Positions 6,688 through 33,388 of a stretch of 35,209 nucleotides of DNA are shown here, one piece after another. Location: the IMG/VR virus record IMGVR_UViG_3300032087_003848; one strand, given 5' to 3'. Origin of the DNA: an uncultured virus (IMG/VR IMGVR_UViG_3300032087_003848) (taxonomy: Duplodnaviria; Heunggongvirae; Uroviricota; Caudoviricetes). The notes under the pieces are model-generated. The model was not told where the DNA came from and did no database searches. It worked only from the letters and a program-made list of their open reading frames with translations. Made by a program: the position numbers and the translations under genes. Position 1 is the stretch's first letter. Every line of letters starts with the position of its first letter.

Positions 6688-7056
6688 TTAATCAACCTCG
6701 ACTGCTATAAAAAATTCTATTTCTTCACTTGCACTAAACGGGCCTATTCCTTCAAATGGTATTCTTAACAAAAGATTGTTGTCTGATGTTTCATCAGTTA
6801 TGCAAATTTCTCTTAGAGTCCTTTGTGTAATATTAGAATCACTTCCTTGAATAGTTATTTTGAAATCAACTACGTTCTCTCCCGATTTTACCGATGAAAT
6901 AGATACGCCATGTGCCGCACCGGAACCTCCCAATAAAGGAACATCTAAAGTAGTTTGAGAAGGACTTGAGCCATCCCCACCTGTTCCTACATTTCCTCTA
7001 GTAAAAGTGCTAACTAAATGTTGTGCTAAAATAGACTTTGCTGCATCTGTAATCAT
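6688..7056 (-). CDS. Small baseplate/fibre-attachment protein
   Basis: MITDAAK...VGTG...TTL...LREI resembles fibre N-terminal attachment modules; lies between hub and fibre. Confidence 0.55.
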   Translation of the reverse strand: MITDAAKSILAQHLVSTFTRGNVGTGGDGSSPSQTTLDVPLLGGSGAAHGVSISSVKSGENVVDFKITIQGSDSNITQRTLREICITDETSDNNLLLRIPFEGIGPFSASEEIEFFIAVEVD

Positions 7057-13000: not shown

Positions 13001-13949
13001 TTGTTGGTCCTGTAAAATCATCTAAGGGTGTATTATCATCTGATTGTCTTCTAGCGTTTAATGCCCAAGTATTGTAACTATTAGGATTAGGTGTAATAGA
13101 ACCCACATCGTAATACAAATTAGTATCTGTCTGATTATCTGCCGTAGGAGTGTCCATTAATTTTCTATTATCTATTATTTCTGCATTTAAAGTAAACTTA
13201 CTTTTATCTATGACTCTAAATTTTGCGCTTTGCTTAGTAGTAAAGGTTGAAATTGTGTTTAAAGTGATAGAAGTAGTAGTAGTCCCTCTAGCATAACATA
13301 ATTTGTATTTTGTATTGTGGTCTAGTTGATTCTTTTTATCTAGCCTGTCATTGTAAAAATGAAATAGAGGTTTAGAAACCATAAGATTGTCATTATGTCT
13401 TGTATCTGCACTTGCGCCTTTTAACAATAAACCGGCAGTTACGGCAACTACTGAAGTATCAGTTATAGTTGGTCCTCTAAATACAATAAATTTAGTGCCT
13501 TTTGGTATTTCATTACCTAACTTAGGAGTAAATTCTAACGCATCACCTAATACATCATCCGTAACTACTTCAGTAATTTTAGCAAAATGATGTTGTTTTA
13601 TTTCATCAGCATAGATTAAAATAAAGTAATCATAAGTAGTTAAGTCCACTGTGTTGAATTGTTGGCCTTCATTATTTTGTTTTCTAAATGCTTTTACTCT
13701 ATAACCGGGCGTATTTTCTAAATTTTCATTATAGTTATCATATGTCCCCGTTGTAATTTTTTCCATAGTGGTAGGTGTGCTATTATCGTTTCTTATTTCA
13801 GCACATATATATTCGTTGCCGGGAGAAACATTGTATCTAATTACGGGATTAGTAGGGCAGTCATGATTAATATTGTTGCCTGTATCTCCCCAAGTAGTAT
13901 TTATTCCTGTGCCGCTATGCACACCCTCTTTCATAACATATAATGACAT
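7053..13949 (-). CDS. Giant (2298 aa) tail tip / baseplate hub protein
   Basis: Hub-like FNGAVEEI...IEVVGRD and C-terminal NEVIVYG...SIKENGKKTLEITD...LKPGDVIEL; downstream of TMP and Dit-like genes. Confidence 0.7.
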   Translation of the reverse strand: MSLYVMKEGVHSGTGINTTWGDTGNNINHDCPTNPVIRYNVSPGNEYICAEIRNDNSTPTTMEKITTGTYDNYNENLENTPGYRVKAFRKQNNEGQQFNTVDLTTYDYFILIYADEIKQHHFAKITEVVTDDVLGDALEFTPKLGNEIPKGTKFIVFRGPTITDTSVVAVTAGLLLKGASADTRHNDNLMVSKPLFHFYNDRLDKKNQLDHNTKYKLCYARGTTTTSITLNTISTFTTKQSAKFRVIDKSKFTLNAEIIDNRKLMDTPTADNQTDTNLYYDVGSITPNPNSYNTWALNARRQSDDNTPLDDFTGPTTYLHYEDSPNILNRENNVFESVIFNSLSDKSGIAECKVLDIKNVFSLKNNVQDDLVIREQIEEINLSGWFETDLVLDSITSGSTNLKFKTQGDYDARVLWGQNEEIKIGNYIGFVDSISAPSSNLHTVVCNNKWRLESETFFSVRSSAPFSAGDKIYRRKWSPITKTLMTNLELDTDVTYTGLSALTSHILPLDVDSFTYKINGVTLSSYTDSRYNNAVVLFNDVNYTSRTVRVLFGDRVHSCFRLEPEKTHYRENTVNSFTSLDYAFGKCSVELELFNGAVEEISKDFDNGQPVIEVVGRDDIRKLVSPIINKNTLFTQDIIHSSISPLQNIKAAETSGGVSVTVSSDKDINSTSISISGVIASLSVGDAIFDTNKNFIGIIQSGHDSTTLTLEFGSCVKLASSSALYIQDKKPFTFKKALQASTKNSESVSSLHGASNKGVFFNGGITVDSSGAKSGILAGSSKNTTTGAIGYNFEGITNIKKDRAFQSRLKDDVSGNYLEDDVVNGLSDFVIMSKKTEDKNTVFQLAPRVGLYLGRVDENDTYDADNMTLANTSLTITGSSYPHYLTNRPYLTTGAGIDGVFKRNDPVFVKEVSTGEFTFMGYFIRSVSDLGGTHHYLVLDREITISASSSSSHQIWALTDKDTTDMYFINKPSSLIQKASPIISNTKGLLPFNIHIHDTLSSTVTTDYITRYGPPYYRFLDLEKGNYNVFNEYPIKKLNTTNQKEVGAYYDLSSKTNYYASAYRFKNGYVTSVPTITNSRKDDFTDLHAKQGMFEKRGNFPSRGTNFWDYYLTGNTSPKRRYMSNEYVGGERNWERNLQQFDSKVSRNFLFTTCDLLPESDLRKTSLYYGSRDLSDFSILLQRNGNESEVSSSHTKSLGGGSSISNTDDETQLAQILSGPSINNLKKFTMLRLVEMTLDWHFNSVDAENLPDKEKTIDLQRENTMGNLFKVVDSGGSDVTLASSDYGADSITLNAAPNNLDNSKGYRFYTDNGNWIGTSFAQTYGATIDFDSASGGEGPYANDDNIKGSLTVIYAIDANAPGLYIQGHGSKDTFVDMFNQPLHMIKGAVFQNELFGRRNGMDGYAEDDDDEYHEDFLPNNITGGSATTAHTFSLTDNIASAEAELFDIALPPVFSVPTSLPTRANLVDSGGTQLKIDTGQAVNNGNNVNLVLTGTPVLTANEQYHLFTEAGHYLGRTTSQTYSSSTVVMERLFLFDKLQTATASGKAINPMRNVQYAEVGDESLIRTDGNTHKSEVLKSISRLQERNTYAQTLPVFLDRYDIEDGGQASVSAGMTSSMIVDHAPLLNNFHAESNVSATHPHKLMLGRKSQQGFAHYTGSGKVSKDGETPFQADGAYMLFKPYLLFTTQDGTNMFTGSHTVKAVGDSTNCKKYSFTVNPDGSGGQLKNIWLNFAPNLTGCYLVSFSGKAYGQNASNEDDFESTDSAAGEKSLRGTGESIPQRIHYVISHTITRTATDTRHEIVIDNAASVSSAYKIMRVAENTFYNFSPKTIKTYCLSPTFTKKPYDEECYSEIKSYKYRNTKGPKTETEDRGNGSKTYENTGHGEGVLSMYIIADPSNKGSGSHLVYRNQTDISGLLDNGDNFTAGMTDGENKLKTDINVVSISSFNTHQLTFTKMAEMVGAVSIGEIFSLKILENIKGDYDIATIGCGANVCFETDDLLNDIFEDEGLEFTKQNLTEYPVFVSPEFRGVSLLTAANSLLSRKDRRISYDKKFILRDNNSALNRPKIKISDRDSKYNIRSVKNGKKLFDSFNEVIVYGRNIKSVRKDIRSIKENGKKTLEITDEDIYTQEEADIRASNLLKVHSKIGETIEVEVSGRGLFVLKPGDVIELEGSFLLAETNKRRGEFIIVEKEYSITGLTKLKLGENNKGLEDRFGELLLENKNIRGLRRTKTFKEPSKSSDFFEEIKIKPIRIKVRKRTTSGTAFTLGFSTPLNTAAATMGFTAGTTIVYSDLLEEQL

Positions 13950-18432: not shown

Positions 18433-20067
18433 TCACCCCTGTAAAATCCAATGTGTTTTAACTTTGCATAGGCTTAGGTTTCTAGGCATAACTGTTGCTT
18501 CAACAACAATTGGTCCTTTGTCTTCCTGTATTGGGAAATTATTAGCCGAGATAAAGTAATCTGTAAAGTTTAGAGTAATACTTTCTCCATCAGGCTTTGT
18601 AAATACTAACTCAATAGTCTGTGTTTGATTCTCATCATCATTTCTAAGAGCATTATACAGTGCATTATCAGTAACGTGACCTGTAAATTGAATCTCATAT
18701 GTTCTTTGTGCCGGAAGAGAAACCTGCACTTCTTTAGATGCAACTCCTAAGAATCTTCTATCTTGTAAAGTATTATTCATTGTCAATGTCAAAGTATTTA
18801 TCTTTAAGAAAGTTTGACCTAATACCTTGAATGTTCCATCAGAAAAGAAGAACGGCTCTCTAAATTCTTGTGCTGAGTTAGCAGTATTCGTTGAACCATC
18901 TTCAAAGTTAAAGAATTCTTTTTCATCTGTTACACCTCTTCGAGCATCATACTTCTCATCCTGTTGTAATTGATGAACATTTCTAGTATTCAAACTCATG
19001 GTCATCTTAACTTCTTCATTTTCATTAGCAGTCATAGTTAAAGTATTAACTCGGCAACCCCTTGCTATTTGAACGAAGTTTAGGTCTTCATCAGCAGAAG
19101 CATTATTTGTTCTATAAATATTAGTCCCTGTTAATTTAGAATGATTGTATTCTAAAGCAAAAGAAGGTAACAGGTCACTGTTTTGTTCTTCAAATGTGTA
19201 TTCAATATGTCTTGTAATATTTCCGCTTGAAATAGCAGGTCTATTTAATTTCTTAACATCATTTTGAGTCTCAACCTGTTGGGGGTTTAAAGGAGGACAA
19301 ATATCGTTTCCAATAACTCTATAAAAAATCGGTCCTGTTTCAACAAAACCATTAATTAAATTCTGTCCTGTTGGAATAGCAACCGGTGGGTCAGCATCAT
19401 TCAAAGCCTCAATTAAAACAACATTGGCATCCCCGGATTCAAATCTTGTTGAAGGGCTTGTCGCAGTCGCTAAAGTGCAAGTCAATTCTGTGCATTTACC
19501 TAAGAAATAATACAACCATGCACCATGATTCGCTACTATGTTTAAATCAGCAGTGCCAAAATTAGTAATTCCTTTGTATTGATAAGTATAGTTTCTTGAA
19601 CCGCCTAGACTTAGATTTACTTGTTTCATTTCGGGTTCAACAGTAGGAAATGTTGCACTTTCAAGAATACCTAGCCATTGGTCAGAAAGCAGTTTTTTTA
19701 CATCATTATCAATGCTATCAAAAGGTGCAGGAACAGGTGCGCCATATGACTTGATAACGAAGTAATCTGTTGAGGCAGGTGTAACTGTATCTGTAATAGT
19801 TACACTATCAGCATTATTAGATTTAATTATATGAGAAGAAGCAAGACTTCCGCCCGTAGTATATCTTTCTAGAGTGCATCCGATATAAAGGTCATTTAAT
19901 AATTTAAAATTAGCAGTAAATCCTGTTGCTGCTTGAATAACACTTACAGTTTCACTACCTGTAAATGCACTTCCTCCGTCTTGAACTCCTACTCCTAAAT
20001 ACAAATCACATTCCGGTATGAATGTTAAACTTGTTCCTGCTCCCAAAAATATCTCTTCATTTGCCAT
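18433..20067 (-). CDS. Major tail tube protein with accessory insertions
   Basis: GCRVNTLTMTA...VKMTMSL, NTLQDRRFLG...QRTYEIQFT; upstream of chaperone and TMP. Confidence 0.8.
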   Translation of the reverse strand: MANEEIFLGAGTSLTFIPECDLYLGVGVQDGGSAFTGSETVSVIQAATGFTANFKLLNDLYIGCTLERYTTGGSLASSHIIKSNNADSVTITDTVTPASTDYFVIKSYGAPVPAPFDSIDNDVKKLLSDQWLGILESATFPTVEPEMKQVNLSLGGSRNYTYQYKGITNFGTADLNIVANHGAWLYYFLGKCTELTCTLATATSPSTRFESGDANVVLIEALNDADPPVAIPTGQNLINGFVETGPIFYRVIGNDICPPLNPQQVETQNDVKKLNRPAISSGNITRHIEYTFEEQNSDLLPSFALEYNHSKLTGTNIYRTNNASADEDLNFVQIARGCRVNTLTMTANENEEVKMTMSLNTRNVHQLQQDEKYDARRGVTDEKEFFNFEDGSTNTANSAQEFREPFFFSDGTFKVLGQTFLKINTLTLTMNNTLQDRRFLGVASKEVQVSLPAQRTYEIQFTGHVTDNALYNALRNDDENQTQTIELVFTKPDGESITLNFTDYFISANNFPIQEDKGPIVVEATVMPRNLSLCKVKTHWILQG

Positions 20068-20781: not shown

Positions 20782-22101
20782 CTAACCGAGGAAATATACT
20801 AAGTCTCCCTTCCCCTTGAGAATATCCATAGCCTCTTGCTTTAAAATATCATACTTTTCTTTAGTTGTAATATTAGCACCTGTTTCAGCAATTAATACAC
20901 TTTGGTCATCATGTCTTAGTATTTCTGCTGCTGCTAATTTAGTTGCTGCTTCATGTATAGCAGCAGGGACTCTCCCATTACCTGCTAGATAAGTAACTAT
21001 TACTGAATTCTTTTCATGGTAAGGATAGTCTCTTAAGAAGAATATTCTTCCTTCTGATTTGATAGTCCAATAGGAACCTAGCCTTCTTAGGTCTTCTTTA
21101 TCAGTAAAGTTAGTTAAATCACAAACTGTTGGTATTTTGTCATCAGTTGTAAATGTAGCAGTTCCCGAACCTGTATTTGTTGCTGATGCAGACATAGTAA
21201 CATTAGTCGAATCAACAATAGCAGTAATTGTAGTTCCACTAGGAATATGATTACCTTGTTCTGCTATTTCCATACCTACAATTAATTTAGACGAATCCGC
21301 CACAACAAGATTAGTGCTGCCGTTTGTATGTGTTACTGATTGTTTTATGGTTGCTTTGAGAACACATTCTGCCCCGTCATCACCGGAAAGTAGGGATGAA
21401 ATGAGGACTCTCTTGCCGTTTGCTCTGTCCTTTGCAGCATAGAAAAAATCAGAAATTGACAAACTATTCGGTGTTGATGACAATGATTTCAAAGCCGTAG
21501 CACCTGTAAAGTTAGATGTGCTAGACGGAAATTGTTCATTAACTAGAGAGACTATTTCATCATTCGTAGTTTTAATTCCAAACGTGTTACAGAATTCATC
21601 ATTTCCTAAATCGGAAATGTTATTCTCAGCAACCATTTCAAATGAATCTCCGCTATTAGGTAATTCTAAAATTATAGAATTTAAATCTCTAAAGTTTTCT
21701 TGAAGTAGTATCTTGGCTTGTGCCGATGCTAATTCTTCATATTCGCTACCTTGCCAAACTTGTAAAGATATTACCTTTCTCAATCTTAGTTGGGATAGTT
21801 GAATAAAACCAACATATCCTCCATAATAAGAATGCATTGGTAGTGTCTTGAATTGAAAATCATGGAATTCATTCTTAGTAATAATAGGCCTAAAAGAACG
21901 CTTTACTTTATCATCAATAAGTCCCTCGACTCTTTTGATAATTGCACCGACTTGTGCTAAAGTAGGATAAGTAGTGCTAGCAGTAAAAACAGGAACCTGT
22001 AATAGATTAGCAACTTCAGTTGCATTAGTATAGAATCCTCTTCCGTCTGTATAACTAGGATTTATTTCTGTAAAATCACTTGGCGATACTGTTACTGACA
22101 T
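20782..22101 (-). CDS. Head-tail adaptor (HK97 gp6/SPP1 gp15-like) with large insertion
   Basis: YTNATEVANLL...IKRVEGLIDD at the N-terminus; VIVTYLAG..RVPAAIHEAATKLAA at the C-terminus. Confidence 0.75.
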   Translation of the reverse strand: MSVTVSPSDFTEINPSYTDGRGFYTNATEVANLLQVPVFTASTTYPTLAQVGAIIKRVEGLIDDKVKRSFRPIITKNEFHDFQFKTLPMHSYYGGYVGFIQLSQLRLRKVISLQVWQGSEYEELASAQAKILLQENFRDLNSIILELPNSGDSFEMVAENNISDLGNDEFCNTFGIKTTNDEIVSLVNEQFPSSTSNFTGATALKSLSSTPNSLSISDFFYAAKDRANGKRVLISSLLSGDDGAECVLKATIKQSVTHTNGSTNLVVADSSKLIVGMEIAEQGNHIPSGTTITAIVDSTNVTMSASATNTGSGTATFTTDDKIPTVCDLTNFTDKEDLRRLGSYWTIKSEGRIFFLRDYPYHEKNSVIVTYLAGNGRVPAAIHEAATKLAAAEILRHDDQSVLIAETGANITTKEKYDILKQEAMDILKGKGDLVYFLG

Positions 22102-24233
22102 TATTCAAGTCCTCCTATTAGTCTCTTAATTTTTCTAATGACTTTTCTATATCCACCAATTGTTCTATTTAATTCCCTATTTCTTCTAGGCCTAAGTTGA
22201 ACTGAAGGTATTTCATATGCCTGCATAAGATAGCCTTTAATTGAGATATTAGTATCTTTGAATGATTCATTTATTTCGTCTATTGGAACTTGTCCTGTTT
22301 TATAAGTTATTTTTCCAAACTCGGAAGTGATATCTTCTCCGGTATTTGCATCCAATACTTCTTTTGCCCCTTCTCTTTTAATTCTAGCAATATCTTCTGC
22401 TTGTGTTTCTCGGTAAACTCTTTCGTATTCTTGTTTTTTCTTGGGGGAGAGTTTATCGTATTCCTTATCAGTAATTTGTTTTACTTCAATTCTTTGATAT
22501 TCTTCCTTTTCCTCAGAAGAGAGTTTATCATATTCTCTGTTAGTAATTCGCACACCTTCTCCGTTTTTCCAACCCTCTTTGGTTTTCCAACCTTCGCTTA
22601 CTTCATAGACATCTGCATCTTCATCTGTTATTCCTTGTTCAAATGCGTCTTTCATACTAGAATATAATTCCTTAGTTTTGCCCTTTTTGACTTTAAAAGT
22701 GACATATACTCTTATTCCCATAACTCTATTATATTCTTTAAGTAAATCAGAATCCTTTGCTTCCTTCTTTACCATTTCAGTAATCTTTTTTACTAAAGTT
22801 TCGATTTGGTCATCATTCTCATATGACATGGAAATAGGAGTGCTTTCACCACCTTTTATTGTATATTCAATTGGCTCATCAACTTCTTCCCATTTTTTAT
22901 TGAAATTGTTGTATTTATAATTTAATTTAGCCTTATTTTTTCCTTGCGCTACTTCTTCAAAAGCGGCTGCAATAAAGCCATCAACAGGATATGCTATGGT
23001 GGTAGCAGGTATTCCTACAGCAGTCTCATATTCTTCGTAAGTTAATTTTCTTTCAATTAGTTTTCTTTTATATTTATCTTTTTCTTTGTTAGATAATTTA
23101 TCATAATCTTCATTACTAATTGTTATACTATTATTTTTCTTACTTATCCACATTGTTTCATCTTCTTCTTGCTCAATAAAACCATCAAAAACATCGCTAA
23201 CTTTTTTGTTCTCTGATTTGGCTTGCTTTTCTGCGCCGTCATATTCTTTAGAATATTTATCAAACATTTCTTTAATTCTTCTATTTTTTTCGCTTTCGGA
23301 AACCTTCTCTCTTTCTCCTGCCATTTGACCTAGTTTACCCATTTCAAAAACTTTGGTTTGAATCGTTCTTTTAGATAATTCATCATTCAATTCTTCTATG
23401 AAATCTTCATCTAAACTGAGGTCATATCTCTCTAATGTATCTTCTAATAAATCGAAAGATTGATTTTTAGCCACAGGCTTTACTATATTACCTGACATAT
23501 TAGATAATACAGATGCTCTTTTTTTGCTTATATCTTCTAATTCATCAGTTAAAGGTCTATCCGAACCTAATTGATTTGGATAGTCAATAATTAAATGTGC
23601 TTTATCTTTCAGATTTTTATCCGTCAAAACACTTGTTCCTGTATTTATTTTACCGGTAGGTTCTCCGCCTCTTGTTGATTCTTCTAAAACCAATTCATAA
23701 TCAAACTTAGGAGAGCGAACAATTTTATCAATTTCTTCTTCGCTTAGTTTCTTTTCTAAGTTTTCTTCTTGGCTTCTTAGATAATTTAATCCCTTAAGTC
23801 TTCTAATAACTTCGGGTTTCATTAAATCTTTTAATTTTTTATTTTCAATATATTTTTTATTGGCTTCGTTTTCAACTTGAACATCCTTTGTTTCAAATAC
23901 ATCAACTTCTTTGCCATCAACTTCTTTTGTTCCTGTTTTTGTTGTTTTAGAAGTTCTTCTTCTTTTGATAAAATTACTCCATCCGGGTGATTTTTTTAGC
24001 CATTCTGATAAGTCTTCATCAAGGACTTCGCCTATTACTTGTTTTAAAACCGAGGAAAACTCATCCATTTCTTCATCATCATCTTCTAAAGCATATTGAA
24101 CTGCTAAAATTTTCTTATAGAAAGTGTCATCACTTGGATTACTTAATGCATTTCTAAATTCTATTTTGAAATCGTCTTTGGTTGATGTATCTTCAGTATC
24201 AACATAATTGTCTCCCCATAAAAAATCAACCAT
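22101..24233 (-). CDS. Large charged (E/K/D-rich) hypothetical protein with internal repeats
   Basis: 710-aa ORF, GGTGA SD; three YDKLS repeats. Confidence 0.8.
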   Translation of the reverse strand: MVDFLWGDNYVDTEDTSTKDDFKIEFRNALSNPSDDTFYKKILAVQYALEDDDEEMDEFSSVLKQVIGEVLDEDLSEWLKKSPGWSNFIKRRRTSKTTKTGTKEVDGKEVDVFETKDVQVENEANKKYIENKKLKDLMKPEVIRRLKGLNYLRSQEENLEKKLSEEEIDKIVRSPKFDYELVLEESTRGGEPTGKINTGTSVLTDKNLKDKAHLIIDYPNQLGSDRPLTDELEDISKKRASVLSNMSGNIVKPVAKNQSFDLLEDTLERYDLSLDEDFIEELNDELSKRTIQTKVFEMGKLGQMAGEREKVSESEKNRRIKEMFDKYSKEYDGAEKQAKSENKKVSDVFDGFIEQEEDETMWISKKNNSITISNEDYDKLSNKEKDKYKRKLIERKLTYEEYETAVGIPATTIAYPVDGFIAAAFEEVAQGKNKAKLNYKYNNFNKKWEEVDEPIEYTIKGGESTPISMSYENDDQIETLVKKITEMVKKEAKDSDLLKEYNRVMGIRVYVTFKVKKGKTKELYSSMKDAFEQGITDEDADVYEVSEGWKTKEGWKNGEGVRITNREYDKLSSEEKEEYQRIEVKQITDKEYDKLSPKKKQEYERVYRETQAEDIARIKREGAKEVLDANTGEDITSEFGKITYKTGQVPIDEINESFKDTNISIKGYLMQAYEIPSVQLRPRRNRELNRTIGGYRKVIRKIKRLIGGLE
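22419..23127 (-). repeat. Three protein-level repeats I[ST]xx[ED]YDKLSxxxKxxYxR
   Basis: ISNEDYDKLSNKEKDKYKR, ITNREYDKLSSEEKEEYQR, ITDKEYDKLSPKKKQEYER. Confidence 0.8.
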
Positions 24234-24244
24234 TTAGGCTCACC

Positions 24245-24898
24245 TCACATTAACCATTTAGCCCATGCAGCACCTTTTTGTATCGCTGAACCTAAACCTA
24301 AGCCTGCTTTTGGTGGCTCATAACTCATTTGTCCTGTTTGTGGGTCTATCCAATATGGCCTACCATATCCATCTGTTCCATTAGGAGGAACAGGATAACC
24401 TGTGCCATTATTCATAGCACCCTGCATTTGATTATATTGTTGCATATTACCTGTTACTCCTGCAATAGCAGCACCGGCAGCAATTTGTTGTGTCTGTCCT
24501 CCACCAAATCCTTGAGATTCTAGATATTGTTGCTTTGCCATCTTTCTTTGATTTACTACTTCTGCATTAATAGCGGATTGAAGTAGCCTTTGAATATCCA
24601 AATCAATATTCTCTTGAGTAATTCTTTCGTATTCTCTCATAGCGTCAGCATCAATTTGTATTGAATTTCCTGTCATTGTAAATTTTAATTTACTTAGCAT
24701 TTGGGAAACAACTCTCTCAATTACATCTTCCATTAGTTTTTCCAAAGCAGTTAAGAAATGTTCTCCATGATACTGAAAGAATTCCTCAACATGATTATCT
24801 TGTAGTGATAACAGATTATTCATTGATTTGAATTGTTGGTCCCCTTGTGCTTGCACTGCTCCTAAAACAGTGCCGTTACTTGTTCCTAATAATCCCAT
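24245..24898 (-). CDS. Helical, Q/G-rich protein with WW-like motif and C-terminal amphipathic helix
   Basis: DGYGRPYWIDPQTGQMSYEPP; ends LGSAIQKGAAWAKWLM. Confidence 0.8.
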   Translation of the reverse strand: MGLLGTSNGTVLGAVQAQGDQQFKSMNNLLSLQDNHVEEFFQYHGEHFLTALEKLMEDVIERVVSQMLSKLKFTMTGNSIQIDADAMREYERITQENIDLDIQRLLQSAINAEVVNQRKMAKQQYLESQGFGGGQTQQIAAGAAIAGVTGNMQQYNQMQGAMNNGTGYPVPPNGTDGYGRPYWIDPQTGQMSYEPPKAGLGLGSAIQKGAAWAKWLM

Positions 24899-24900
24899 AA

Positions 24901-25560
24901 TTATTCCTCTTTAGTTTCTTCTCTAGTAGGTATCTTTACTCCTTCGTTAATCATTAAGTAATTTAGCCTATCAGTGAGTATATTTATCTCACCAACAATC
25001 TCAATTACTTCGTTAGTAGCACTCCTATTATCTCCTAATGAGGGTGGCTTTATTAAATAACCGCTTGCAGTAAGTGTTGCTATATTCTCTTTAGTTAAAT
25101 GGGTCAAAGGACCACTTTTCAGAACCTTTGGCATCTTAGGAATATATTTAGCAAACTCTAAGCCATGCTTATCCGCAAGTATTGTCTGTTGTAGCATTTC
25201 TAATTGCATAAACATAGCAGCATGTTTAGGACAATATGTTCCTGCTAATGGCCTACCTTTCACTACATTATCTAGTGGGATAGGAGGTCTTAATGAATCT
25301 CCGGGTTCCCATATATGATGAAAACCACAAACTACGCATCTATCTTTTAAATTAAATTTTTTACCATATTTTAATCCCAAAAATTTCTTTGGTTCGGGCT
25401 TTAAAACGGCAACTAATTCTTTTAATTGTTTTTTAGGTTTAATTGCTACAAACTTGTATTCCATTATAGAACCGCTTGCTCTTGCTGCTCTCAACGGAGA
25501 TAAGAATGCAGTTGGTAACATATTTGGATTCTGTCCTATAATATTTGGTTGCTGATACAT
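24901..25560 (-). CDS. Putative Zn-finger protein
   Basis: RCVVCG...TYCPKH (CxxC/CxxH); C-terminal heptad-like helix. Confidence 0.75.
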   Translation of the reverse strand: MYQQPNIIGQNPNMLPTAFLSPLRAARASGSIMEYKFVAIKPKKQLKELVAVLKPEPKKFLGLKYGKKFNLKDRCVVCGFHHIWEPGDSLRPPIPLDNVVKGRPLAGTYCPKHAAMFMQLEMLQQTILADKHGLEFAKYIPKMPKVLKSGPLTHLTKENIATLTASGYLIKPPSLGDNRSATNEVIEIVGEINILTDRLNYLMINEGVKIPTREETKEE

Positions 25561-25590: not shown

Positions 25591-25926
25591 TTAGATAAAA
25601 TGATACTCATTTACTCCTTTCGTTCCAAGACGGTTTCCTTTATTATCAAAAATAATTTTGTTTTTTCTTTTCACTTCTAATAAATTATTTTCTCTTAATA
25701 TTTTAGTGGTAACATTTTTAATACGGTTCAAGTCCACTTTTCCCCCGCCCTGATTTGCATGAGAAGTATGTTTTTTGGCATAAGACTGATTTATTTCTTC
25801 TAGTAGTTGTAAGTATTCATCTGCACTTAAAACCTCACCTTTCATTTCTTTACCTTTGGTTAAAACAATCTCTTTAAGAAAATCATAATTTAATCTCTTT
25901 GCTGCTTTTAATACTTCTTCCCACAT
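25591..25926 (-). CDS. Basic hypothetical protein starting MWEEVLKA
   Basis: ATG 25926 just after the GTPase stop; K-rich. Confidence 0.65.
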   Translation of the reverse strand: MWEEVLKAAKRLNYDFLKEIVLTKGKEMKGEVLSADEYLQLLEEINQSYAKKHTSHANQGGGKVDLNRIKNVTTKILRENNLLEVKRKNKIIFDNKGNRLGTKGVNEYHFI

Positions 25927-25931
25927 AGTAA

Positions 25932-26600
25932 TCAATAATCCTTTATCATCGTCATTACGCCTCTATAAACCATTTCGGGTTCTGATTTTGCTGAAACTAT
26001 ATACTTAAAACAAGGTATTCCTTTATCGTTTAATTGTCTCATTCCATACTTAAACGGTTCAAAAATTTCATGTTTGTCTATTGTTTGTCCTTCTTTTAGT
26101 GGATATTTTTCTCCCCATATGTCATATTTATTTGCCCATATGCCCACTGCAATAGGATAATCTGAATCTCTTTTTTTTCTGTTAGTGGGCCAAGTATTTG
26201 CACATATTGTATCAACTAAAAACTTCCATGCTACTTGATGGTCTAAGTTAGAAGAATTATCTAAGTGCCTATGGTCTATCATAAAAATCACATACTTTAC
26301 TCTTCTTTTTTGCATGTCTTTAACCCATTCTTTCCAATAGATTGCTTCTCCGCCAACGTCTGCACTTCTAACAGTATGTGAGTCTCCGTCTATTTTAACT
26401 GTTTTTCTAGAGGCCCTATGTAATCCTACTGTTCTTTCATTTATTTGAGGCACTTCTCCCCTTGTTCTTAACTGATTACTTAACGTTGTTTTACCAACCA
26501 TTGTTGCACCATACACACCAAAATTAATTGCATGAACCTTTCTATAAAAACTAATGAATGCTTCTCCTACCAAAATGGCAAAGCCTGTCATCATTGACAA
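25932..26600 (-). CDS. Arf/Sar1-like small GTPase with N-terminal hydrophobic helix
   Basis: G1 GATMVGKT, G2 RTVG, G3 DVGGE, G4 NKYD, G5 SAK; TTG 26600 six nt after GGAGGT. Confidence 0.9.
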   Translation of the reverse strand: MSMMTGFAILVGEAFISFYRKVHAINFGVYGATMVGKTTLSNQLRTRGEVPQINERTVGLHRASRKTVKIDGDSHTVRSADVGGEAIYWKEWVKDMQKRRVKYVIFMIDHRHLDNSSNLDHQVAWKFLVDTICANTWPTNRKKRDSDYPIAVGIWANKYDIWGEKYPLKEGQTIDKHEIFEPFKYGMRQLNDKGIPCFKYIVSAKSEPEMVYRGVMTMIKDY

Positions 26601-26602
26601 GA

Positions 26603-26818
26603 CTATACCTCCCAACTGTGCCAAAAGGTATCTAATATCCAACCTAGAATATTAATATCGAAGACACCCATAATGTTTCCAATAAAGAAAGAGGATATGG
26701 CAGCACAAGTGCCCCAAAACCATGCTCTCATTTTTAGAAATAAAATATCTGCTGAATGCGCTCTTTGCTGATTATATGCATAATCAGAATCAGAAAACCC
26801 TAGAAAATCAGAAAACAT
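26603..26818 (-). CDS. Small membrane protein, 71 aa
   Basis: Hydrophobic AWFWGTCAAISSFFIGNIMGVF and INILGWIL. Confidence 0.8.
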   Translation of the reverse strand: MFSDFLGFSDSDYAYNQQRAHSADILFLKMRAWFWGTCAAISSFFIGNIMGVFDINILGWILDTFWHSWEV

Positions 26819-26827
26819 TTAACCGCC

Positions 26828-27223
26828 TCACTGAAGAGTAGCGGCTAAAAATTCACTTCCAACAGTGTTATCATCAGTTGTCTCAATGTTAGAATACTGC
26901 GGGAAAGTCATTCCGCCATATTGCTTTGCGCTTTCCTGCATCTTTCTCAACTGTTGCTCATCTCTTGCTTTCCTTTCCCAATAGGCCGCAATCTTTCTAT
27001 CAAGTAGCCACATCTCTATTTTATCATTTAGTGCTAAATCAAATAGGGCTTTCATTACCATAATAGCACCTATCGTTCCTAAACCAAATAATACGGAGTG
27101 TGCTAAAGGACCATATGGAAATCCTAAACCTATCTGTGCATAAACCATAACGTTAGCACCACTTAATGCACCAACGAAAAGTATAGTCATAACTAATCTA
27201 GTATCTTGATTCAATGCAGGCAT
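26828..27223 (-). CDS. Two-TM membrane protein with charged C-terminal tail
   Basis: GAGGTGA SD; LVMTILFVGALSGANVMVYA and SVLFGLGTIGAIMVMKALF. Confidence 0.85.
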   Translation of the reverse strand: MPALNQDTRLVMTILFVGALSGANVMVYAQIGLGFPYGPLAHSVLFGLGTIGAIMVMKALFDLALNDKIEMWLLDRKIAAYWERKARDEQQLRKMQESAKQYGGMTFPQYSNIETTDDNTVGSEFLAATLQ

Positions 27224-28295: not shown

Positions 28296-29651
28296 TCACA
28301 GAAGGTTTGTGACTTTGCCTTGTCCTTTCCAATACGAGCAACCCAATTCACCAATTGTTCGGTAAAGAGCCTTGTTTCCGAGGGTTCCGACACCGAATGG
28401 GTTTCCGTTGCTAATACCATCCTCAAAGTATTGAGTTGGTTTCATAACAGATAGCCATAGATGGTCTGTATCTAGGAACAACATATCGCTAATACAATCG
28501 GCATTTGCACCTGTGGAAGCCATAGCAGCAACAGGAATTAGAGGAATATCGTAGTAAGTTGATACTCTAAATCCTACTTCTTGACCTTTAACACCACGAA
28601 CACCATTTACAGTTGGAACAATTTCTTTTCTATCCATAAATCTCTCTTGTGCTTGTAGCAAATCAGAGATAGTTTGTAGTGTATCATATCCTGTTAGAAT
28701 AACCTTTGGTGAACCACCCGCAACACGAATTAGTCTTAGCATTTCATTAAGAACAGTTAGTGTTAGTTGGCGAGCATCTCCACTAGCATAAGTATCACCA
28801 AAAGTAACCTGCGAATCTAGGAAAGAAGCAGAATTTCGGTTTGATGAAAACAAATTAGTTACTTCAGCAGCAGTCGCACTTGATATTAGATTTGCAGCAG
28901 CCATAGCATCTAATTCTCCTTTAGAAGAAACAATCTTGTTTAGAGATGTATAGTTTCTCTCAATTGTATCAACAGTGACTGAACTTGAAACTGTTGAACC
29001 TGCTGAATAGAATTCTAGAGGCATAACTAGCATAGCATTCTGAACCTCAGCATGGTGCTTACCCATATCTTCACGCATTTGCGCTCTAATATCGCCAATT
29101 CCATCATCAATTTGTGCCATTTCCATAGCCAATTCGCTGAATTCAAATTGATGTGCAATAATTTTAGGACTTGTGAACAATTGCTCATACTTTGGCGCAA
29201 TAGAAGCCAAACCATCAGCAACAGTATCTAGACCTGCATTTTCAGGAACACCACCAATAATATCTGCTCTAGGAGAAGTTGAACCAATGTTTGCAGCATC
29301 TTTTGTTCCTTCAACATCCAATGCTAGGAAGTTACCACTACCACCGGCAGGTCTTTCTGACAATACTCTCCAACCGCTAGAAGTATATGGCCTCTTAGCA
29401 ATTACTGAAAGAGCATTACATTCACGGTTTAGCATAGACCAAACTTTTTGTCCGTAAACTTGATTGTATAATGCTCCTAGAGAAGAAGCAGCAGTAGTCC
29501 CACTACCAACTCCTAGAGAAACATCATGGCCTGTATGAATACCTGCCACTGCACCAACTTGCTTAAGCAATTGGTTGTTTAGTCCCGCATTTGCGCCCAT
29601 TCCGTAAGTATTAGCCTCTAAATCTGCAATTGTGTTAATATATCCACTCAT
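28296..29651 (-). CDS. Major capsid protein (HK97 fold)
   Basis: 451 aa after protease-scaffold; GGSPKVILTG, YYDIPLIP, MLFLDTDHL, YRTIGEL. Confidence 0.9.
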   Translation of the reverse strand: MSGYINTIADLEANTYGMGANAGLNNQLLKQVGAVAGIHTGHDVSLGVGSGTTAASSLGALYNQVYGQKVWSMLNRECNALSVIAKRPYTSSGWRVLSERPAGGSGNFLALDVEGTKDAANIGSTSPRADIIGGVPENAGLDTVADGLASIAPKYEQLFTSPKIIAHQFEFSELAMEMAQIDDGIGDIRAQMREDMGKHHAEVQNAMLVMPLEFYSAGSTVSSSVTVDTIERNYTSLNKIVSSKGELDAMAAANLISSATAAEVTNLFSSNRNSASFLDSQVTFGDTYASGDARQLTLTVLNEMLRLIRVAGGSPKVILTGYDTLQTISDLLQAQERFMDRKEIVPTVNGVRGVKGQEVGFRVSTYYDIPLIPVAAMASTGANADCISDMLFLDTDHLWLSVMKPTQYFEDGISNGNPFGVGTLGNKALYRTIGELGCSYWKGQGKVTNLL

Positions 29652-29652
29652 C

Positions 29653-30849
29653 TTAAATTCCTCCTACCATCTTGTGAATGTCGTTCCAATCCATTTGTGC
29701 AACTTCATCCAATGAAGGGAGTTTAATTTCAGACTCTTCTTGAGCCTTTAGAATAGTCTCTTTCTCAGCAGTTAGAGACTTTCTTAGTTGTGTAAATTCT
29801 TCCTTTAGGGAAGCAATTTCTGACTTTGCATCGTAATTTGCTTTAGCGATTGCATCTGTTCTTGTTGTTGTTTCAGCCTTAAATCGGGCTTCAAACTGCT
29901 TTTGAAGATTATCGTAAGCCAACTTTTCTAGTTGTTCTTGACGGAATGCTTCGTAAGCCTTCTCAATGTTTCCTACTGACAAATCAAGTGTTTCTAATTC
30001 TTCGTTGTTAAATGCCTTAACAACCGGCAAATCAGAAGCCTTTGGGTTTCCGTTGTCAATTACAACTCTATCCGCAGGTTCGCCGATTTCAACGCCTGCG
30101 CCATCTAGAGTTGAAAGTAAAGCCTTTGCTTCTCTTTCTCTATCGTCGGACATATCCATCATTTCCTCTTCGTCATCTTTCATTTCCATAGTATCGGCTC
30201 TTTCCATTTCATCCATGTATTCACCCATACCTTTCTCTTCTTCTTCTTCTTCTTTTCTTAGCATATTGACTTCCTCCATTAGAGTGTCCAATTCTGCTAA
30301 TGCTTTTTCTAGTTTACTCATTTTTTTTGCCTCCTTATCTTGCTTTAAAATATCAAATTTCGCTTCCGGGTTTATTCCTTTTTCACATATTGTTACTTCA
30401 TGCAATTCTAGTTTGCTTATTTCATTGTAATCTCCTAACTCCGGGTGATTTTTCTTTACTTTATGTATTGCTTGCCCCCCAATGCTAAATGACCTCAATG
30501 AACCTTTTCTTATGCCTCGATTTATTTCTTTGGCTTTTTCTATATCATCCCTTAATTTAATCACTACAAAAAATCCTACATCATCAACTTCAGTTTTCCA
30601 TAGTTTTCCGTTCTTATCTCGATACGATTTAATTACCTCTCCGACTTGAACATTTGAATGGTTTGTCATTACATTCCTAAATTTGGGATTCTCCATGTAT
30701 TTTTCGACTGCATCTTCTAATGCTTTGAGTGTAATTAAATCATTTTGCTTATCAACGATTTCGATGCTTGCATATCCTCCAATCATTAAATCGTCACTTT
30801 TGAGTATTCTGAAATCATCATTATGATTAGCCATAATAGCAGATGCCAT
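29653..30849 (-). CDS. Prohead maturation protease fused to an acidic coiled-coil scaffold
   Basis: GYAS..VDKQND, catalytic NHS, SFSIGG, HEVTIC..GINPEA; C-terminal half is an E/K coiled coil. Confidence 0.9.
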   Translation of the reverse strand: MASAIMANHNDDFRILKSDDLMIGGYASIEIVDKQNDLITLKALEDAVEKYMENPKFRNVMTNHSNVQVGEVIKSYRDKNGKLWKTEVDDVGFFVVIKLRDDIEKAKEINRGIRKGSLRSFSIGGQAIHKVKKNHPELGDYNEISKLELHEVTICEKGINPEAKFDILKQDKEAKKMSKLEKALAELDTLMEEVNMLRKEEEEEEKGMGEYMDEMERADTMEMKDDEEEMMDMSDDREREAKALLSTLDGAGVEIGEPADRVVIDNGNPKASDLPVVKAFNNEELETLDLSVGNIEKAYEAFRQEQLEKLAYDNLQKQFEARFKAETTTRTDAIAKANYDAKSEIASLKEEFTQLRKSLTAEKETILKAQEESEIKLPSLDEVAQMDWNDIHKMVGGI

Positions 30850-30889: not shown

Positions 30890-33388
30890 TCACTGTGGAA
30901 TTTTAATTTTTGCATACTTATCTTCGTAAATATCCCAAATACCATCATCTGTTTTACTATCCACAGGTTCCTGTTCATATCCTGTCCACGCCAACCACAT
31001 CTTTTTACCCTTTACAGGCAAATATCTAATATGGAGTTTAGTCTCAAACTTGTTTCCATCTAAGAAATATTCATGATATCCATCCCTCTGAACACCTAAT
31101 TCAACAGTCCCACTATCAATTACCTTTTCTTTTTCTATATTAGTTGCCACTTGTGCAGGATATTTTCCCGCAGCACCAAACAAATCAAACAATTCTTCTT
31201 CGTTTTCTAAATCAATAGTCCAATTAATAGTATCTTCACCTAATTTAATTGATAGAGTAATGTTGTCGTCTTCTCTAGCATATATTTTGAAAGGACCGCT
31301 TCTTTTTTCTTCGGGAGTTTTATACTCTTTTTTAATTTCTTCAGTCTCTTTTTGGACTTTATCATAACTCATGAAGAGTTTTTTAGTTTGAGGATTGTAA
31401 TCTATACCATCTCTATTATCAGCCCATTCAACCAAACCATCTTTTCCATCTTTTACAATGTCTTTATACTCAGCAACATTTTCTTTCACTAGATAGTCAT
31501 GCACTTCTTTTAATGTTCTAGGCCCATTATCTGTCAAATAACGAATAATTGCATTTGCCAAAACACCCTGTTTAGTTTTCATTATCTCTTGCACTTGTTC
31601 TTTCCAAATGTCAATATCCAACATAGCATTCTTAGACATCAAATTGTGTTCTTCAAAGAAAGTAAAACCACTTACGTCGAACTTTAGTATCGCTTCACCG
31701 TGAATATGGTCCGTTATTTTGAATCCTTTTGTTAACGCAGTCACATCATAATTTAGAGACTTCTTAGTATCTTGGGCTAAGAATTCTAAAGTAACCACTT
31801 TATCAGGCATTTCGACTTCCGGTATTTCTATTACCTTTGCAGAATATAGAGTAAATCTTTCACCGGATTGCTTTACTTCATCAACCTTTACTCTAACTAT
31901 ATCTCCTACATTTGCTGAAGTTTTAGTATTAAGAGTCTTACCGACGTTCATGTATTTTTTACCGTCAATTTCTTCTATAAATTTACTTTCCTCATCAGTC
32001 GGACCAACATCAACACCAACAGTATAAGAATATAAATTGCTTTTTGTTTTCTTTTTATCCAAAACAATAACATCTAAATCAACAAATTTTTTCCATTTAA
32101 TCCACTTAGGGTTCTTTCTTGTTCCTAAATAATAAGTTGAAGTAGCATCTTTAATTACTACTCCTTCAGCAGTAGGCATATTCATAATTGTCTTAGAATA
32201 TTCTTCTATATCTTTTAGACTATCTGCCATTCTAGTATCTCTTTTAGATGGGAATACTAAATACTCAGAAGAATGAGATGAATAGTTGTTGAATAAGGTA
32301 GTAATTCTATTAGACAATTCTTCATCAAGAAGAGTTTGTTCTTCGTGTCGCATAATATCAAAAACATGGCATTTTAATTTAGCATCTTTGTATTTTCCTT
32401 TGAATACATGAGCAATAGTATCTGCCCTATGTAAAGAATCTTCACCACTAAATAGAATCAATTCAGCATCTAAAATACAGTCGCCAAAGTGTTTTTTCTT
32501 TAATTCATCAACTATGTCAGAACATTTATCTGTTATATTCTTTTTGTTATAGGAATAAACTTTAACTGATTTATCAAACTTATGAAGTTGCACTCTCATG
32601 CCATCATATTTTTCTTGAACAACCCAATCACCACTGAAACCCTTTAATTCATTGATATCTTCAATATCAAATATTCTATACATCGGTTTGTTAGGAATAA
32701 TGAAATCACTAATTGACTTCTCTTCTTCTGATTTTTTCATATCAATATCAACCAATTCTTCCCATTCTTTTTCTTCATGTTGGGAAAAGAAGACTAACTG
32801 CAATAGGTCTAAGGCTGCCTTTACTTTAGATTCCACTTTCTTTGAATCTTTTCCATCCCCATAATGCTCAATAATATACAGTGCTATGTCGTCTTCCTCT
32901 AGGTCAAGACCCATAAGACCCTCGGTAATTGAGTCCGGTTCCATGTCTTTTATTGATAATGTTTCAGCAGTTAGAGCATTGTTGTGATTCCTTAGAGCAT
33001 AATGAACAAATTTAACCATAGATTCGGGATTTGTCATTAACTCTTCAAGAACATTACCTTTGAATCTTTTAGCGAACGGGTCTTCGACTAATTTAGAATT
33101 ATATCTTAGAAGTTTTATTTTTTCAAATAAGTTTTTTGCTTCGGTTGTCTTAACATCATTAACGCTATTATTTTCTAAATCATCTTCATCAATGAAATTT
33201 TTCATTTCTTTTCCGGCAGCATCTAATTCTTCGTATGATTCTTTAATTAATTTAACTGCTGCTCTCCAACGACTCCCATATTCTTTCGGGTCATGTCGTG
33301 CGGATAAATAGGCAACCCTTGTCTTTTCAAAAAGACGCATTATTTCAACTGATGGTTGTCTATCTTTTTCGATAGAACCTAATTTCAT
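30890..33388 (-). CDS. lig: ATP-dependent DNA ligase with long N- and C-terminal extensions
   Basis: Motif I EKYDGMR, III LDAEL, IIIa FDIM, IV EGVVIK, V WIKWK, then OB fold. Confidence 0.92.
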   Translation of the reverse strand: MKLGSIEKDRQPSVEIMRLFEKTRVAYLSARHDPKEYGSRWRAAVKLIKESYEELDAAGKEMKNFIDEDDLENNSVNDVKTTEAKNLFEKIKLLRYNSKLVEDPFAKRFKGNVLEELMTNPESMVKFVHYALRNHNNALTAETLSIKDMEPDSITEGLMGLDLEEDDIALYIIEHYGDGKDSKKVESKVKAALDLLQLVFFSQHEEKEWEELVDIDMKKSEEEKSISDFIIPNKPMYRIFDIEDINELKGFSGDWVVQEKYDGMRVQLHKFDKSVKVYSYNKKNITDKCSDIVDELKKKHFGDCILDAELILFSGEDSLHRADTIAHVFKGKYKDAKLKCHVFDIMRHEEQTLLDEELSNRITTLFNNYSSHSSEYLVFPSKRDTRMADSLKDIEEYSKTIMNMPTAEGVVIKDATSTYYLGTRKNPKWIKWKKFVDLDVIVLDKKKTKSNLYSYTVGVDVGPTDEESKFIEEIDGKKYMNVGKTLNTKTSANVGDIVRVKVDEVKQSGERFTLYSAKVIEIPEVEMPDKVVTLEFLAQDTKKSLNYDVTALTKGFKITDHIHGEAILKFDVSGFTFFEEHNLMSKNAMLDIDIWKEQVQEIMKTKQGVLANAIIRYLTDNGPRTLKEVHDYLVKENVAEYKDIVKDGKDGLVEWADNRDGIDYNPQTKKLFMSYDKVQKETEEIKKEYKTPEEKRSGPFKIYAREDDNITLSIKLGEDTINWTIDLENEEELFDLFGAAGKYPAQVATNIEKEKVIDSGTVELGVQRDGYHEYFLDGNKFETKLHIRYLPVKGKKMWLAWTGYEQEPVDSKTDDGIWDIYEDKYAKIKIPQ

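Follow-up and report, generated by a model that had tools for sequence, protein, structure and literature searches.

A stretch of 35,209 nucleotides from an uncultured tailed virus (IMG/VR record IMGVR_UViG_3300032087_003848, Caudoviricetes; the whole of this stretch is called the window below) carries a gene for a small GTPase, which raises the question to which branch of the small GTPases the protein belongs and what a tailed virus would use it for. A first-pass annotation had described the product as an Arf/Sar1-like GTPase with all five G motifs, a switch II of the type DVGGE and an N-terminal helix. The explanation that we favour, with a probability of roughly 0.7, is that the product is a functional GTPase of the Arf-like branch, tethered to the membrane, specific to viruses and conserved throughout the magroviruses, whose most likely role would be in a late membrane event. 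That the protein is an active GTPase, associates with membranes and derives from the Arf-like branch is, taken by itself, very likely.

The mechanical open reading frame (ORF) of the GTPase reaches back to a TTG at position 26642 (236 aa). This longer form was rejected on the basis of a comparison of the start codons in 80 loci of the window type together with the residues found upstream of them. Hereby, the codon homologous to the TTG at 26600 is ATG in 63/80 and TTG in 16/80 loci (the motif is missing in the remaining one), and directly upstream of it several loci show a stop codon or unrelated, non-hydrophobic residues. Hence, the start was placed at 26600. A seeming conservation of the residues LGG upstream of this start is due to the Shine-Dalgarno-like word GGAGGT present there; such a word precedes the start in only 28/79 loci.

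All features on which the first-pass annotation relied are present in the translation, i.e. G1 to G5, the TVG of switch I, switch II with D81-VGGE85 followed by W89 and W92, the VIFMID stretch (residues 104-109) and the ANKYD/SAK region. For G4 the coordinates were verified on the raw sequence, where 26121-26132 is the reverse complement of AATAAATATGAC. Across 44 sequences of the family, extending down to 27% identity, the residues G31, G36, K37, T39, L40, G48, D81, G84, W92, R99, D109, R111, P149, N157, K158, D160, H177 and V211 are invariant. Since the residues of the nucleotide site are invariant in these 44 sequences and Glu85 is found in 80/80 window-type loci, the motifs cannot be attributed to chance. 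G4 reads NKYD or NKFD in 80/80 window-type loci and NKAD in other lineages.

The annotation had also pointed to a Glu in place of the catalytic Gln of Arf proteins, and this substitution is confirmed: Glu85 is real and fixed in the lineage of the window. To tally the residue after DxGG, the P-loop pattern was matched in 160/164 ORFs and the G3 pattern in 156 ORFs. The residue is Glu in all 80 window-type loci, His in all four loci of a second type (P0136) and variable in the 76 loci of a third type (P0133), where Gln occurs 50 times, Glu 15 times, Asp six times and His once, with four loci unmatched. Thus, position 85 is polar in all 156 G3-matched ORFs; an exception outside this tally is the relative P0145, which has Ala.

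A further observation concerns switch I. The pair Arg56-Thr57 (26430-26435, minus strand) corresponds to an Arg-Thr pair in 9/10 magrovirus-lineage rows of the alignment (A2), and an Arg before the Thr is not present in those relatives that pass the Pfam Arf cut-off (see below). In G-alpha proteins a switch I Arg assists catalysis; by comparison with it, Arg56 might be a built-in catalytic Arg.

The assignment to the Arf-like branch is based on relatives, on profile searches and on structure. The nearest non-viral relatives of the viral family are short metagenomic sequences, which the viral profile reaches at E-values between 1e-11 and 7e-4. Five of the 18 relatives scanned pass Pfam Arf (PF00025, cut-off 22.3 bits) with 27.2-57.2 bits, SRPRB (PF09439, cut-off 25 bits) usually being second. 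A profile built from these bridging relatives retrieves Arl3, Arl2, Arl1 and Arf1 from the PDB at 6e-16 to 1e-10, and hhalign aligns the viral family with the Arf-passing metagenomic group over the full length (probability 99.95, E 1.7e-37, 205 columns).

Searching the PDB with the single GTPase sequence (phmmer) gave nothing relevant, and a 17-row profile found only Ras with an E-value of 0.12. With a 44-row viral profile the best match is the Asgard protein GerdArfR1 (8OUN, E 7.7e-6), followed by Arl10C (6e-4), Rab33B (7.5e-4), Arl8A (8.5e-4), Chaetomium SR-beta (3e-3) and KRas (8.5e-3). RecA concatemers, which nominally topped the PDB profile search, were discarded, as they represent repeated matches to a 17-residue P-loop segment and not homology. 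In the HMMER alignment to 8OUN, matched segments include the end of the N-terminal helix and the P-loop, and the string DigGeerywklW is placed opposite DLGGQLHFRNLW; switch II likewise aligns to DIGGQPRFRSMW of Arl10C. Hereby, W92, located 11 residues after D81, falls on a Trp of both 8OUN and Arl10C.

An AlphaFold2 (AF2) model of the GTPase shows the small-GTPase fold (pLDDT 70, pTM 0.73). In a structural search over 48,161 representative chains a Lokiarchaeal Rag-like protein (Z 16.2), Arf6 (Z 16.2) and SR-beta (Z 15.9) rank above mimivirus Rab (Z 15.2), Sar1 and Gs-alpha (both Z 14.9). Re-ranking of the 1000 best Foldseek matches with VIA places Arf, Arl and ArfR proteins in rows 1-29 of 50 at Z 15.2-16.5, the chain identity of rows 1 and 4 being derived from title and length; Rab5, Rab8 and Rab3 follow this block at Z 14.0-14.7, i.e. 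with a margin over Rab of 1-2 Z. Finally, in a 47-row tree, whose references are Arf-like proteins, the archaeal vesicle GTPase ArvA (discussed below) and Era only, the viral and bridging rows group together with the Arf-like ones (SH-aLRT 97), with ArvA and Era outside. The Arf-like references of this tree were taken from a protein search with the bridging profile, whose best 8000 candidates are rich in two-domain Der GTPases.

Several results have to be set against this assignment. The window GTPase itself has no Pfam Arf match at E <= 1. Its best Pfam score, 20.9 bits for MMR_HSR1, stays below the cut-off, as do those for Roc (17 bits), Ras (12.3 bits), SRPRB (12.2 bits) and G-alpha (12.0 bits), and a 60%-identical relative (P0121) reaches 16.8 bits for Arf, again below the cut-off. 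No canonical Ras, Arf or Rab GTPase is found at E <= 1e-3 when 1.84 billion cluster representatives are searched with the family profile. The margins are small both by sequence (Rab33B at 7.5e-4 compared to Arl10C at 6e-4) and by structure, where the Rag-like protein, SR-beta and mimivirus Rab all lie within 1 Z of Arf6. The AF2 model is moderately confident and weakest in the N-terminal helix and in switch I, and the tree contains no Ras, Rab, Rag, SR-beta or MglA references. Moreover, in the HMMER alignment the stretch from switch I to G3 exceeds that of 8OUN by about 17 columns, so that an Arf-style interswitch cannot be assumed. The N-terminal helix, in addition, has a low hydrophobic moment, and the Kyte-Doolittle mean of its first 18 residues (KD18), which is 1.0-1.3 in other lineages, is there below the standard threshold for a transmembrane (TM) segment.

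When both sides are taken into account, we read the GTPase as an offshoot of the Arf-like branch that is specific to viruses and has diverged very far, and not as a bona fide member of the Arf family. The Arf/Sar1-like designation therefore holds as far as the closest kin are concerned, which are of Arf type by relatives, PDB profile and structure, but it has to be weakened in view of the failed Pfam Arf match and the small margins. By the tests run, the protein also appears to be no member of ArvA, SR-beta or Ras; for Ras/Rab the score of 12.3 bits compares to a cut-off of 21.6 bits (PF00071). The suggestion that the gene bears on the distribution and origin of Arf-family proteins finds little support as far as the origin of eukaryotic Arf is concerned. 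The family is virus-specific and was not found in the host genomes searched, and it is too divergent and too restricted to viruses to say much on this origin without a much better phylogeny; its significance in this respect is small.

The N-terminal segment of the window GTPase, MSMMTGFAILVGEAFISFYRK, has a KD18 of 1.56 and a hydrophobic moment of 0.26-0.32, and AF2 models a helix from residue 3 to 21 with low confidence. Among the 17 close homologues S2, G6, F7, A8, E13 and A14 are invariant within this helix. Other lineages have many Gly, Ala, Trp and Tyr residues in this segment, with Lys or Arg following it. Hence, the N-terminal helix of the annotation is present and hydrophobic, but it cannot be called clearly amphipathic; a short anchor or an interfacial helix would be a closer description than an amphipathic helix of the Arf1 and Sar1 kind.

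The distribution of the family is narrow. A total of 324 homologues are found at E <= 0.01, and the best 120 of them are 68-100% identical to the window GTPase and stem from marine metagenomes. Only 77 proteins at E <= 1e-3 were obtained when a 17-sequence profile was run against the 1.84 billion cluster representatives. Full-length members with about 30% identity are located on contigs of 60-105 kb. Stretches of viral contigs with the family amount to 265 for the window type and to 127 and 4 for two other lineage queries; no viral contig was found for the P0132-type lineage, and a tblastn search of the 'phages' collection gave no match. On these data the family appears confined to viruses and occurs in several deeply diverged lineages of magroviruses. 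The window itself is assigned to a magrovirus, i.e. a tailed virus of Poseidoniales (Marine Group II, abundant archaea of the ocean), because its close homologues are marine and one of them is a hypothetical protein from 'Poseidoniales virus YSH_150918'.

In genomes of the order Poseidoniales the viral-family profile matches in 1/201, the match being a viral contig in a single-cell genome. Pfam Arf was detected at E <= 1e-5 in 0/81 genomes of this order, with controls detected in 9/14, and OapC, the Pfam family of ArvC (PF09845), in 0/121, compared to 73/151 genomes in a sample of the phylum Thermoplasmatota. Many of the genomes are incomplete, and absence here means not found in those searched. 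The OapC result suggests that the host order has lost, or never had, the archaeal vesiculation system; in the phylum sample arvA-arvB-arvC operons are common (loci L175-L186).

Some contigs deserve separate mention. A magrovirus-type GTPase is encoded on a 106-kb contig (L168; GTPase at G002:C2:102125-102835) of the single-cell genome 'uncultured Candidatus Poseidoniales archaeon AG-422-I20'. This contig looks like the complete genome of a virus residing in a host cell and would in that case be direct evidence of the host. Four other contigs with the viral GTPase (L165, L166, L167 and L169) are binned in metagenome-assembled genomes (MAGs) named Maricaulis sp., Flavobacteriales bacterium and Parvibaculum sp.; one bacterial-MAG contig of this kind is 101 kb long. 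Probably, magrovirus contigs were mis-binned here into species-representative genomes.

In the literature, the main texts of the principal magrovirus papers do not mention GTPase, GTP or Arf, and no description of the gene was found in searchable main texts and supplements, although figures and other supplements might label it. A literature search for virus-encoded Arf-like GTPases of archaea found nothing, and one for Poseidoniales GTPases led only to unrelated Asgard papers.

The gene is located between capsid and tail genes, within a late block flanked by prohead protease, major capsid protein and tail tube genes (Table 1). Its immediate neighbourhood was compared in six loci out of three lineage locus sets. 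The order is a TM protein, a small ORF, the GTPase, in some loci a variable small ORF, a protein at the position of the Cys/His protein and a Gln/Gly-rich protein. The TM protein has 131-272 aa in 5/6 loci, while in the remaining one (L155) a 218-aa ORF at this place scored no TM segment. The small ORF comprises 71-95 aa in 5/6 loci, two of these five having a TM segment (none is listed for L084). The protein at the Cys/His position ranges from 219 to 339 aa, and a Gln/Gly/Asn/Pro-rich ORF of 193-272 aa occupies its slot in 6/6 loci. The genes upstream of the cassette differ between magrovirus lineages.

For the individual partners little homology is detectable. The 131-aa membrane protein of the window has no Pfam or PHROG match; its TM segments were predicted by a Kyte-Doolittle scan of a 98%-identical copy in the close locus L003. 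In the same locus a 99-aa ORF takes the place of the 114-aa ORF of the window, with no BLAST match between the two. The Cys/His protein (family A4) matches no family in Pfam or PHROG and no sequence in the PDB, and a fold search with its AF2 model gave no match (best Z 4.3). In a 44-sequence alignment of this family C75, G79, W84, G102, R103, T108, Y109, C110, P111 and H113 are near-invariant. The 217-aa Gln/Gly-rich protein shows a weak match to phrog_14074, 'virion structural protein' (E 7e-4). In agreement with the annotation, no roadblock/MglB domain is found near the GTPase, where the 12 ORFs between 22101 and 28285 match no Pfam family at E <= 0.01.

Table 1. Coordinates of the GTPase gene, its motifs, the neighbouring cassette genes and further genes of the window.
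Feature	Position	Strand	Remarks
Small GTPase gene	25932..26600	minus	222 aa, start TTG 26600; from ORF and translation
N-terminal hydrophobic helix, residues 2-21	26538..26597	minus	invariant Glu13, FYRK at the end
G1/P-loop GATMVGKT, residues 31-38	26487..26510	minus	G31, G36 and K37 invariant in 44 sequences
Switch I ERTVG, E55-G59, with Thr57 (G2)	26424..26438	minus	R56 and T57 invariant in 17 close homologues
G3/switch II DVGGEAIYWKEW, residues 81-92	26325..26360	minus	D81, G84 and W92 invariant in 44 sequences
G4 NKYD, residues 157-160	26121..26132	minus	N157, K158 and D160 invariant in 44 sequences
G5 SAK, residues 203-205	25986..25994	minus	invariant in 17 close homologues
GGAGGT, Shine-Dalgarno-like	26607..26612	minus	6 nt upstream of the TTG start; read from the sequence
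131-aa membrane protein	26828..27223	minus	two predicted TM segments, charged C-terminal helix
71-aa small protein	26603..26818	minus	one predicted TM segment; stop 2 nt before the GTPase start
114-aa ORF	25591..25935	minus	overlaps the GTPase stop by 4 nt; variable slot
219-aa Cys/His protein (family A4)	24901..25560	minus	BLAST matches in the corresponding place of distant lineages (L084, L164)
217-aa Gln/Gly/Asn/Pro-rich protein	24245..24898	minus	BLAST matches in L164 and L161
ATP-dependent DNA ligase	30890-33388	minus	Pfam/PHROG scan
S78 prohead protease	29653-30849	minus	Pfam/PHROG scan
SU10/HK97-type major capsid protein	28296-29651	minus	Pfam/PHROG scan
Tail tube protein	18433-20067	minus	Pfam/PHROG scan
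2298-aa ORF	7053-13949	minus	sole match a tail-protein PHROG near the C-terminus, E 7e-6

The window is AT-rich (30-40% GC) and encodes on the opposite strand a primase-like protein, an ERCC4-HhH nuclease and an exonuclease, as judged by Pfam and PHROG matches. Among sequencing runs, one of DNA or unknown type is listed as containing the stretch, and no RNA run is. The 2298-aa ORF is probably a giant tail fibre or adhesin. Within the 832-aa DNA ligase the ligase domain covers only residues 248-433, leaving large flanks. In the translation of a Lys/Glu-rich protein of 710 aa without family match (22101-24233, minus strand), a motif of the form I[ST]N.[ED]YDKLS..EK[ED].Y.R occurs three times. 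In two other lineages a full-length thermosome gene (Cpn60/TCP-1, E 1e-133 to 1e-140) is found a few genes upstream of the cassette (L164:2820-4481 and L161:3250-4785); the lineage of the window has no thermosome gene at the same place.

As the GTPase gene is kept beside small membrane proteins in every lineage examined, the protein may have the host membrane as its site of action at a late stage of infection. Its most likely role would be the control of a late membrane event such as egress, membrane disruption or local remodelling. More specifically, the controlled event might be egress or membrane remodelling, a tentative proposal for which the position of the gene and its neighbours are the evidence. 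Hereby, the N-terminal helix would tether the GTPase to the host membrane from the cytoplasmic side, probably constitutively, similar to the anchor of SR-beta, and probably not by way of a GTP-released amphipathic helix as in Arf1 and Sar1. Binding of GTP would then set the switch regions, whereupon the GTPase would recruit or gate its cassette partners, and residue 85 (Glu in the window type; Gln, His or Asp elsewhere) would support the hydrolysis that resets the switch. The 131-aa neighbour, with two TM segments and a charged C-terminal helix, fits the generic description of a holin as given in passages of a review (PMC10791045), a description which is weak and unspecific.

An extension of this proposal is that the cassette constitutes the missing release machinery of archaeal tailed viruses, which we consider unlikely. 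Its parts would be the GTPase with its anchor, both small membrane proteins and the Cys/His and Gln/Gly-rich proteins, and the GTP switch would either bud the membrane or time or gate membrane proteins of a holin-like kind. With the virus, this cassette would enter a host order in whose genomes, as far as searched, neither a Pfam Arf match nor ArvC was found.

Among the alternatives, an analogue of the ArvABC system fares best, even though we give it rather less weight than the extension just described. It states that the GTPase, together with a downstream zinc-binding regulator, drives budding or vesicle formation, either for release or for the supply of membrane. According to passages of Mills et al. 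(2024; PMC10927574), haloarchaeal ArvA drives vesicle formation and is a small GTPase with a Pfam MMR_HSR1 match, Arf as its closest HHpred match and an N-terminal amphipathic helix; arvB lies directly downstream of arvA, and arvC, encoding a Zn-ribbon protein and proposed GTPase-activating protein, within two genes. The viral GTPase has its best Pfam score with MMR_HSR1 as well, and the Cys/His gene is found one or two genes downstream. For comparison, 12 arvABC operons from Thermoplasmatota genomes were fetched via OapC, and hhalign of the viral family against their ArvA proteins yields a probability of 96.1 (E 3.4e-9). Moreover, because ArvC was not found in the 121 host-order genomes searched, the virus would supply what its host is without. 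However, the match to ArvA is limited to 71 columns, starting where the N-terminal helix ends and reaching to G3. ArvA has a DTPG without a polar residue after it, whereas the viral GTPase has DVGGE, and the middle part of the protein is different. The Cys/His protein gives hhalign probabilities of only 0.4 with ArvC and 0.07 with ArvB, no OapC or DUF2073 match is found by Pfam among the neighbours in the window and four other loci, and ArvA forms a separate group of the tree (SH-aLRT 98).

A receptor of the SR-beta type has still lower odds. In this case the anchored GTPase would dock a cytosolic partner and thereby bring ribosomes, and the synthesis of viral membrane proteins, to the membrane, with no remodelling involved. 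The architecture of an N-terminal hydrophobic anchor followed by a GTPase fits this idea, SR-beta (2fh5) lies with Z 15.9 level with Arf6, and Chaetomium SR-beta is matched by the viral profile, as given above. SRPRB is, furthermore, the second most consistent Pfam family among the relatives, one of which (P0196) passes its cut-off of 25 with 26.2 bits and another (P0186) reaches 24.7 bits; one source names P0196 'signal recognition particle receptor subunit beta', and one lineage has His at the switch II position in 4/4 loci. Nevertheless, the window GTPase scores only 12.2 bits for SRPRB, and the relatives score higher for Arf than for SRPRB wherever both match. In addition, no partner with a recognisable domain is found by Pfam beside the GTPase in the window and four other loci, and the model of the Cys/His partner has no fold match.

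Equally improbable is a role of the GTPase as a factor of head, neck or tail morphogenesis, or as part of the particle, with the hydrophobic N-terminus binding a protein instead of a membrane. The position of the gene between the major capsid protein and neck/tail genes and the weak 'virion structural protein' match of the 217-aa neighbour would agree with this role. Against it speak the small TM-containing proteins, which accompany the GTPase gene in the six compared loci, and the lack of a match of the GTPase to any PHROG family of any kind; besides, we know of no tailed-virus assembly pathway that needs an Arf-like GTPase. A pseudo-GTPase, i.e. a permanently 'on' scaffold that serves only as membrane adaptor since the exchange of Gln for Glu abolishes hydrolysis, could be invoked in view of Glu85 in 80/80 window-type loci and of the variation of position 85 (Gln, Glu, Asp, His) in other lineages, but it has little to recommend it, as all nucleotide-binding motifs are invariant in the 44 sequences, residue 85 is polar and able to hold a water in 156 ORFs (P0145 with its Ala excepted), and both Gln (Arf, G-alpha) and His (Sar1, SR-beta) are catalytic residues.

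The favoured reading of a membrane-tethered, Arf-like viral GTPase with a putative late membrane role gains its interest from the viruses concerned. Magroviruses count among the viruses that are most abundant in surface ocean waters, as stated in passages of Philosof et al. (2017; PMC5434244), and passages of a 2024 review (PMC10791045) acknowledge as a gap that the players in the egress of archaeal tailed viruses are uncharacterised. An anchored Arf-like GTPase which is kept beside membrane proteins through deep divergence provides a concrete and clonable candidate for a membrane-directed step of infection. Furthermore, with this family the prokaryotic Arf-like GTPases gain a viral branch.

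Among the known systems that come closest to the viral GTPase are the ArfR proteins of Asgard archaea (GerdArfR1, 8OUN/8OUM; HodArfR1, 8OUK). The end of the N-terminal helix, G1 and the DxGG...W element align, the structures compare to the viral model with Z 15.7 and 15.2, and both are of prokaryote type and not lipidated. The ArfR proteins differ in that they have Gln after DLGG and a shorter stretch from switch I to G3 and are cellular, whereas the viral GTPase fails Pfam Arf. The eukaryotic Arf and Arl proteins (Arf1, Arf6, Arl1/2/3/8/10) lead the structural ranking with Z 15.6-16.5, superimposing on the viral model with an rmsd of 2.4-2.9 over 156-164 residues at an identity of about 17-21%. 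In Arl10C and Arl8A the signature from switch II to beta-4 aligns with the viral protein, and the viral switch I TVG resembles the PT[IV]G of the bridging relatives. Unlike Arf and Arl proteins, the viral GTPase has Glu instead of Gln, Ala instead of Trp before the Asp of G3 and no Gly2 for myristoylation, and its N-terminal helix is more hydrophobic and of low moment.

SR-beta shares with the viral protein the succession of an N-terminal membrane anchor and an Arf-like GTPase (Z 15.9); it differs in that the viral GTPase stays below the SRPRB cut-off and in that no SR-alpha-like partner is recognised beside the viral gene. The mimivirus Rab (PDB 5XC5), which we take to be a clear member of the Rab family, is likewise a small GTPase encoded by a virus and represents the first non-Arf structural match (Z 15.2). 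It belongs, however, to a giant virus of eukaryotes, whereas for the magrovirus family no cellular counterpart was found in the host order. ArvABC, finally, resembles the viral cassette in combining a GTPase with an N-terminal membrane helix and a nominal MMR_HSR1 match with a zinc-binding protein and a proposed membrane-deforming role, and the viral Cys/His gene is similarly placed. The cassette partners appear unrelated to ArvB and ArvC, and the correspondence between the viral cassette and ArvABC is, as judged from the sequences, an analogy of layout and not membership.

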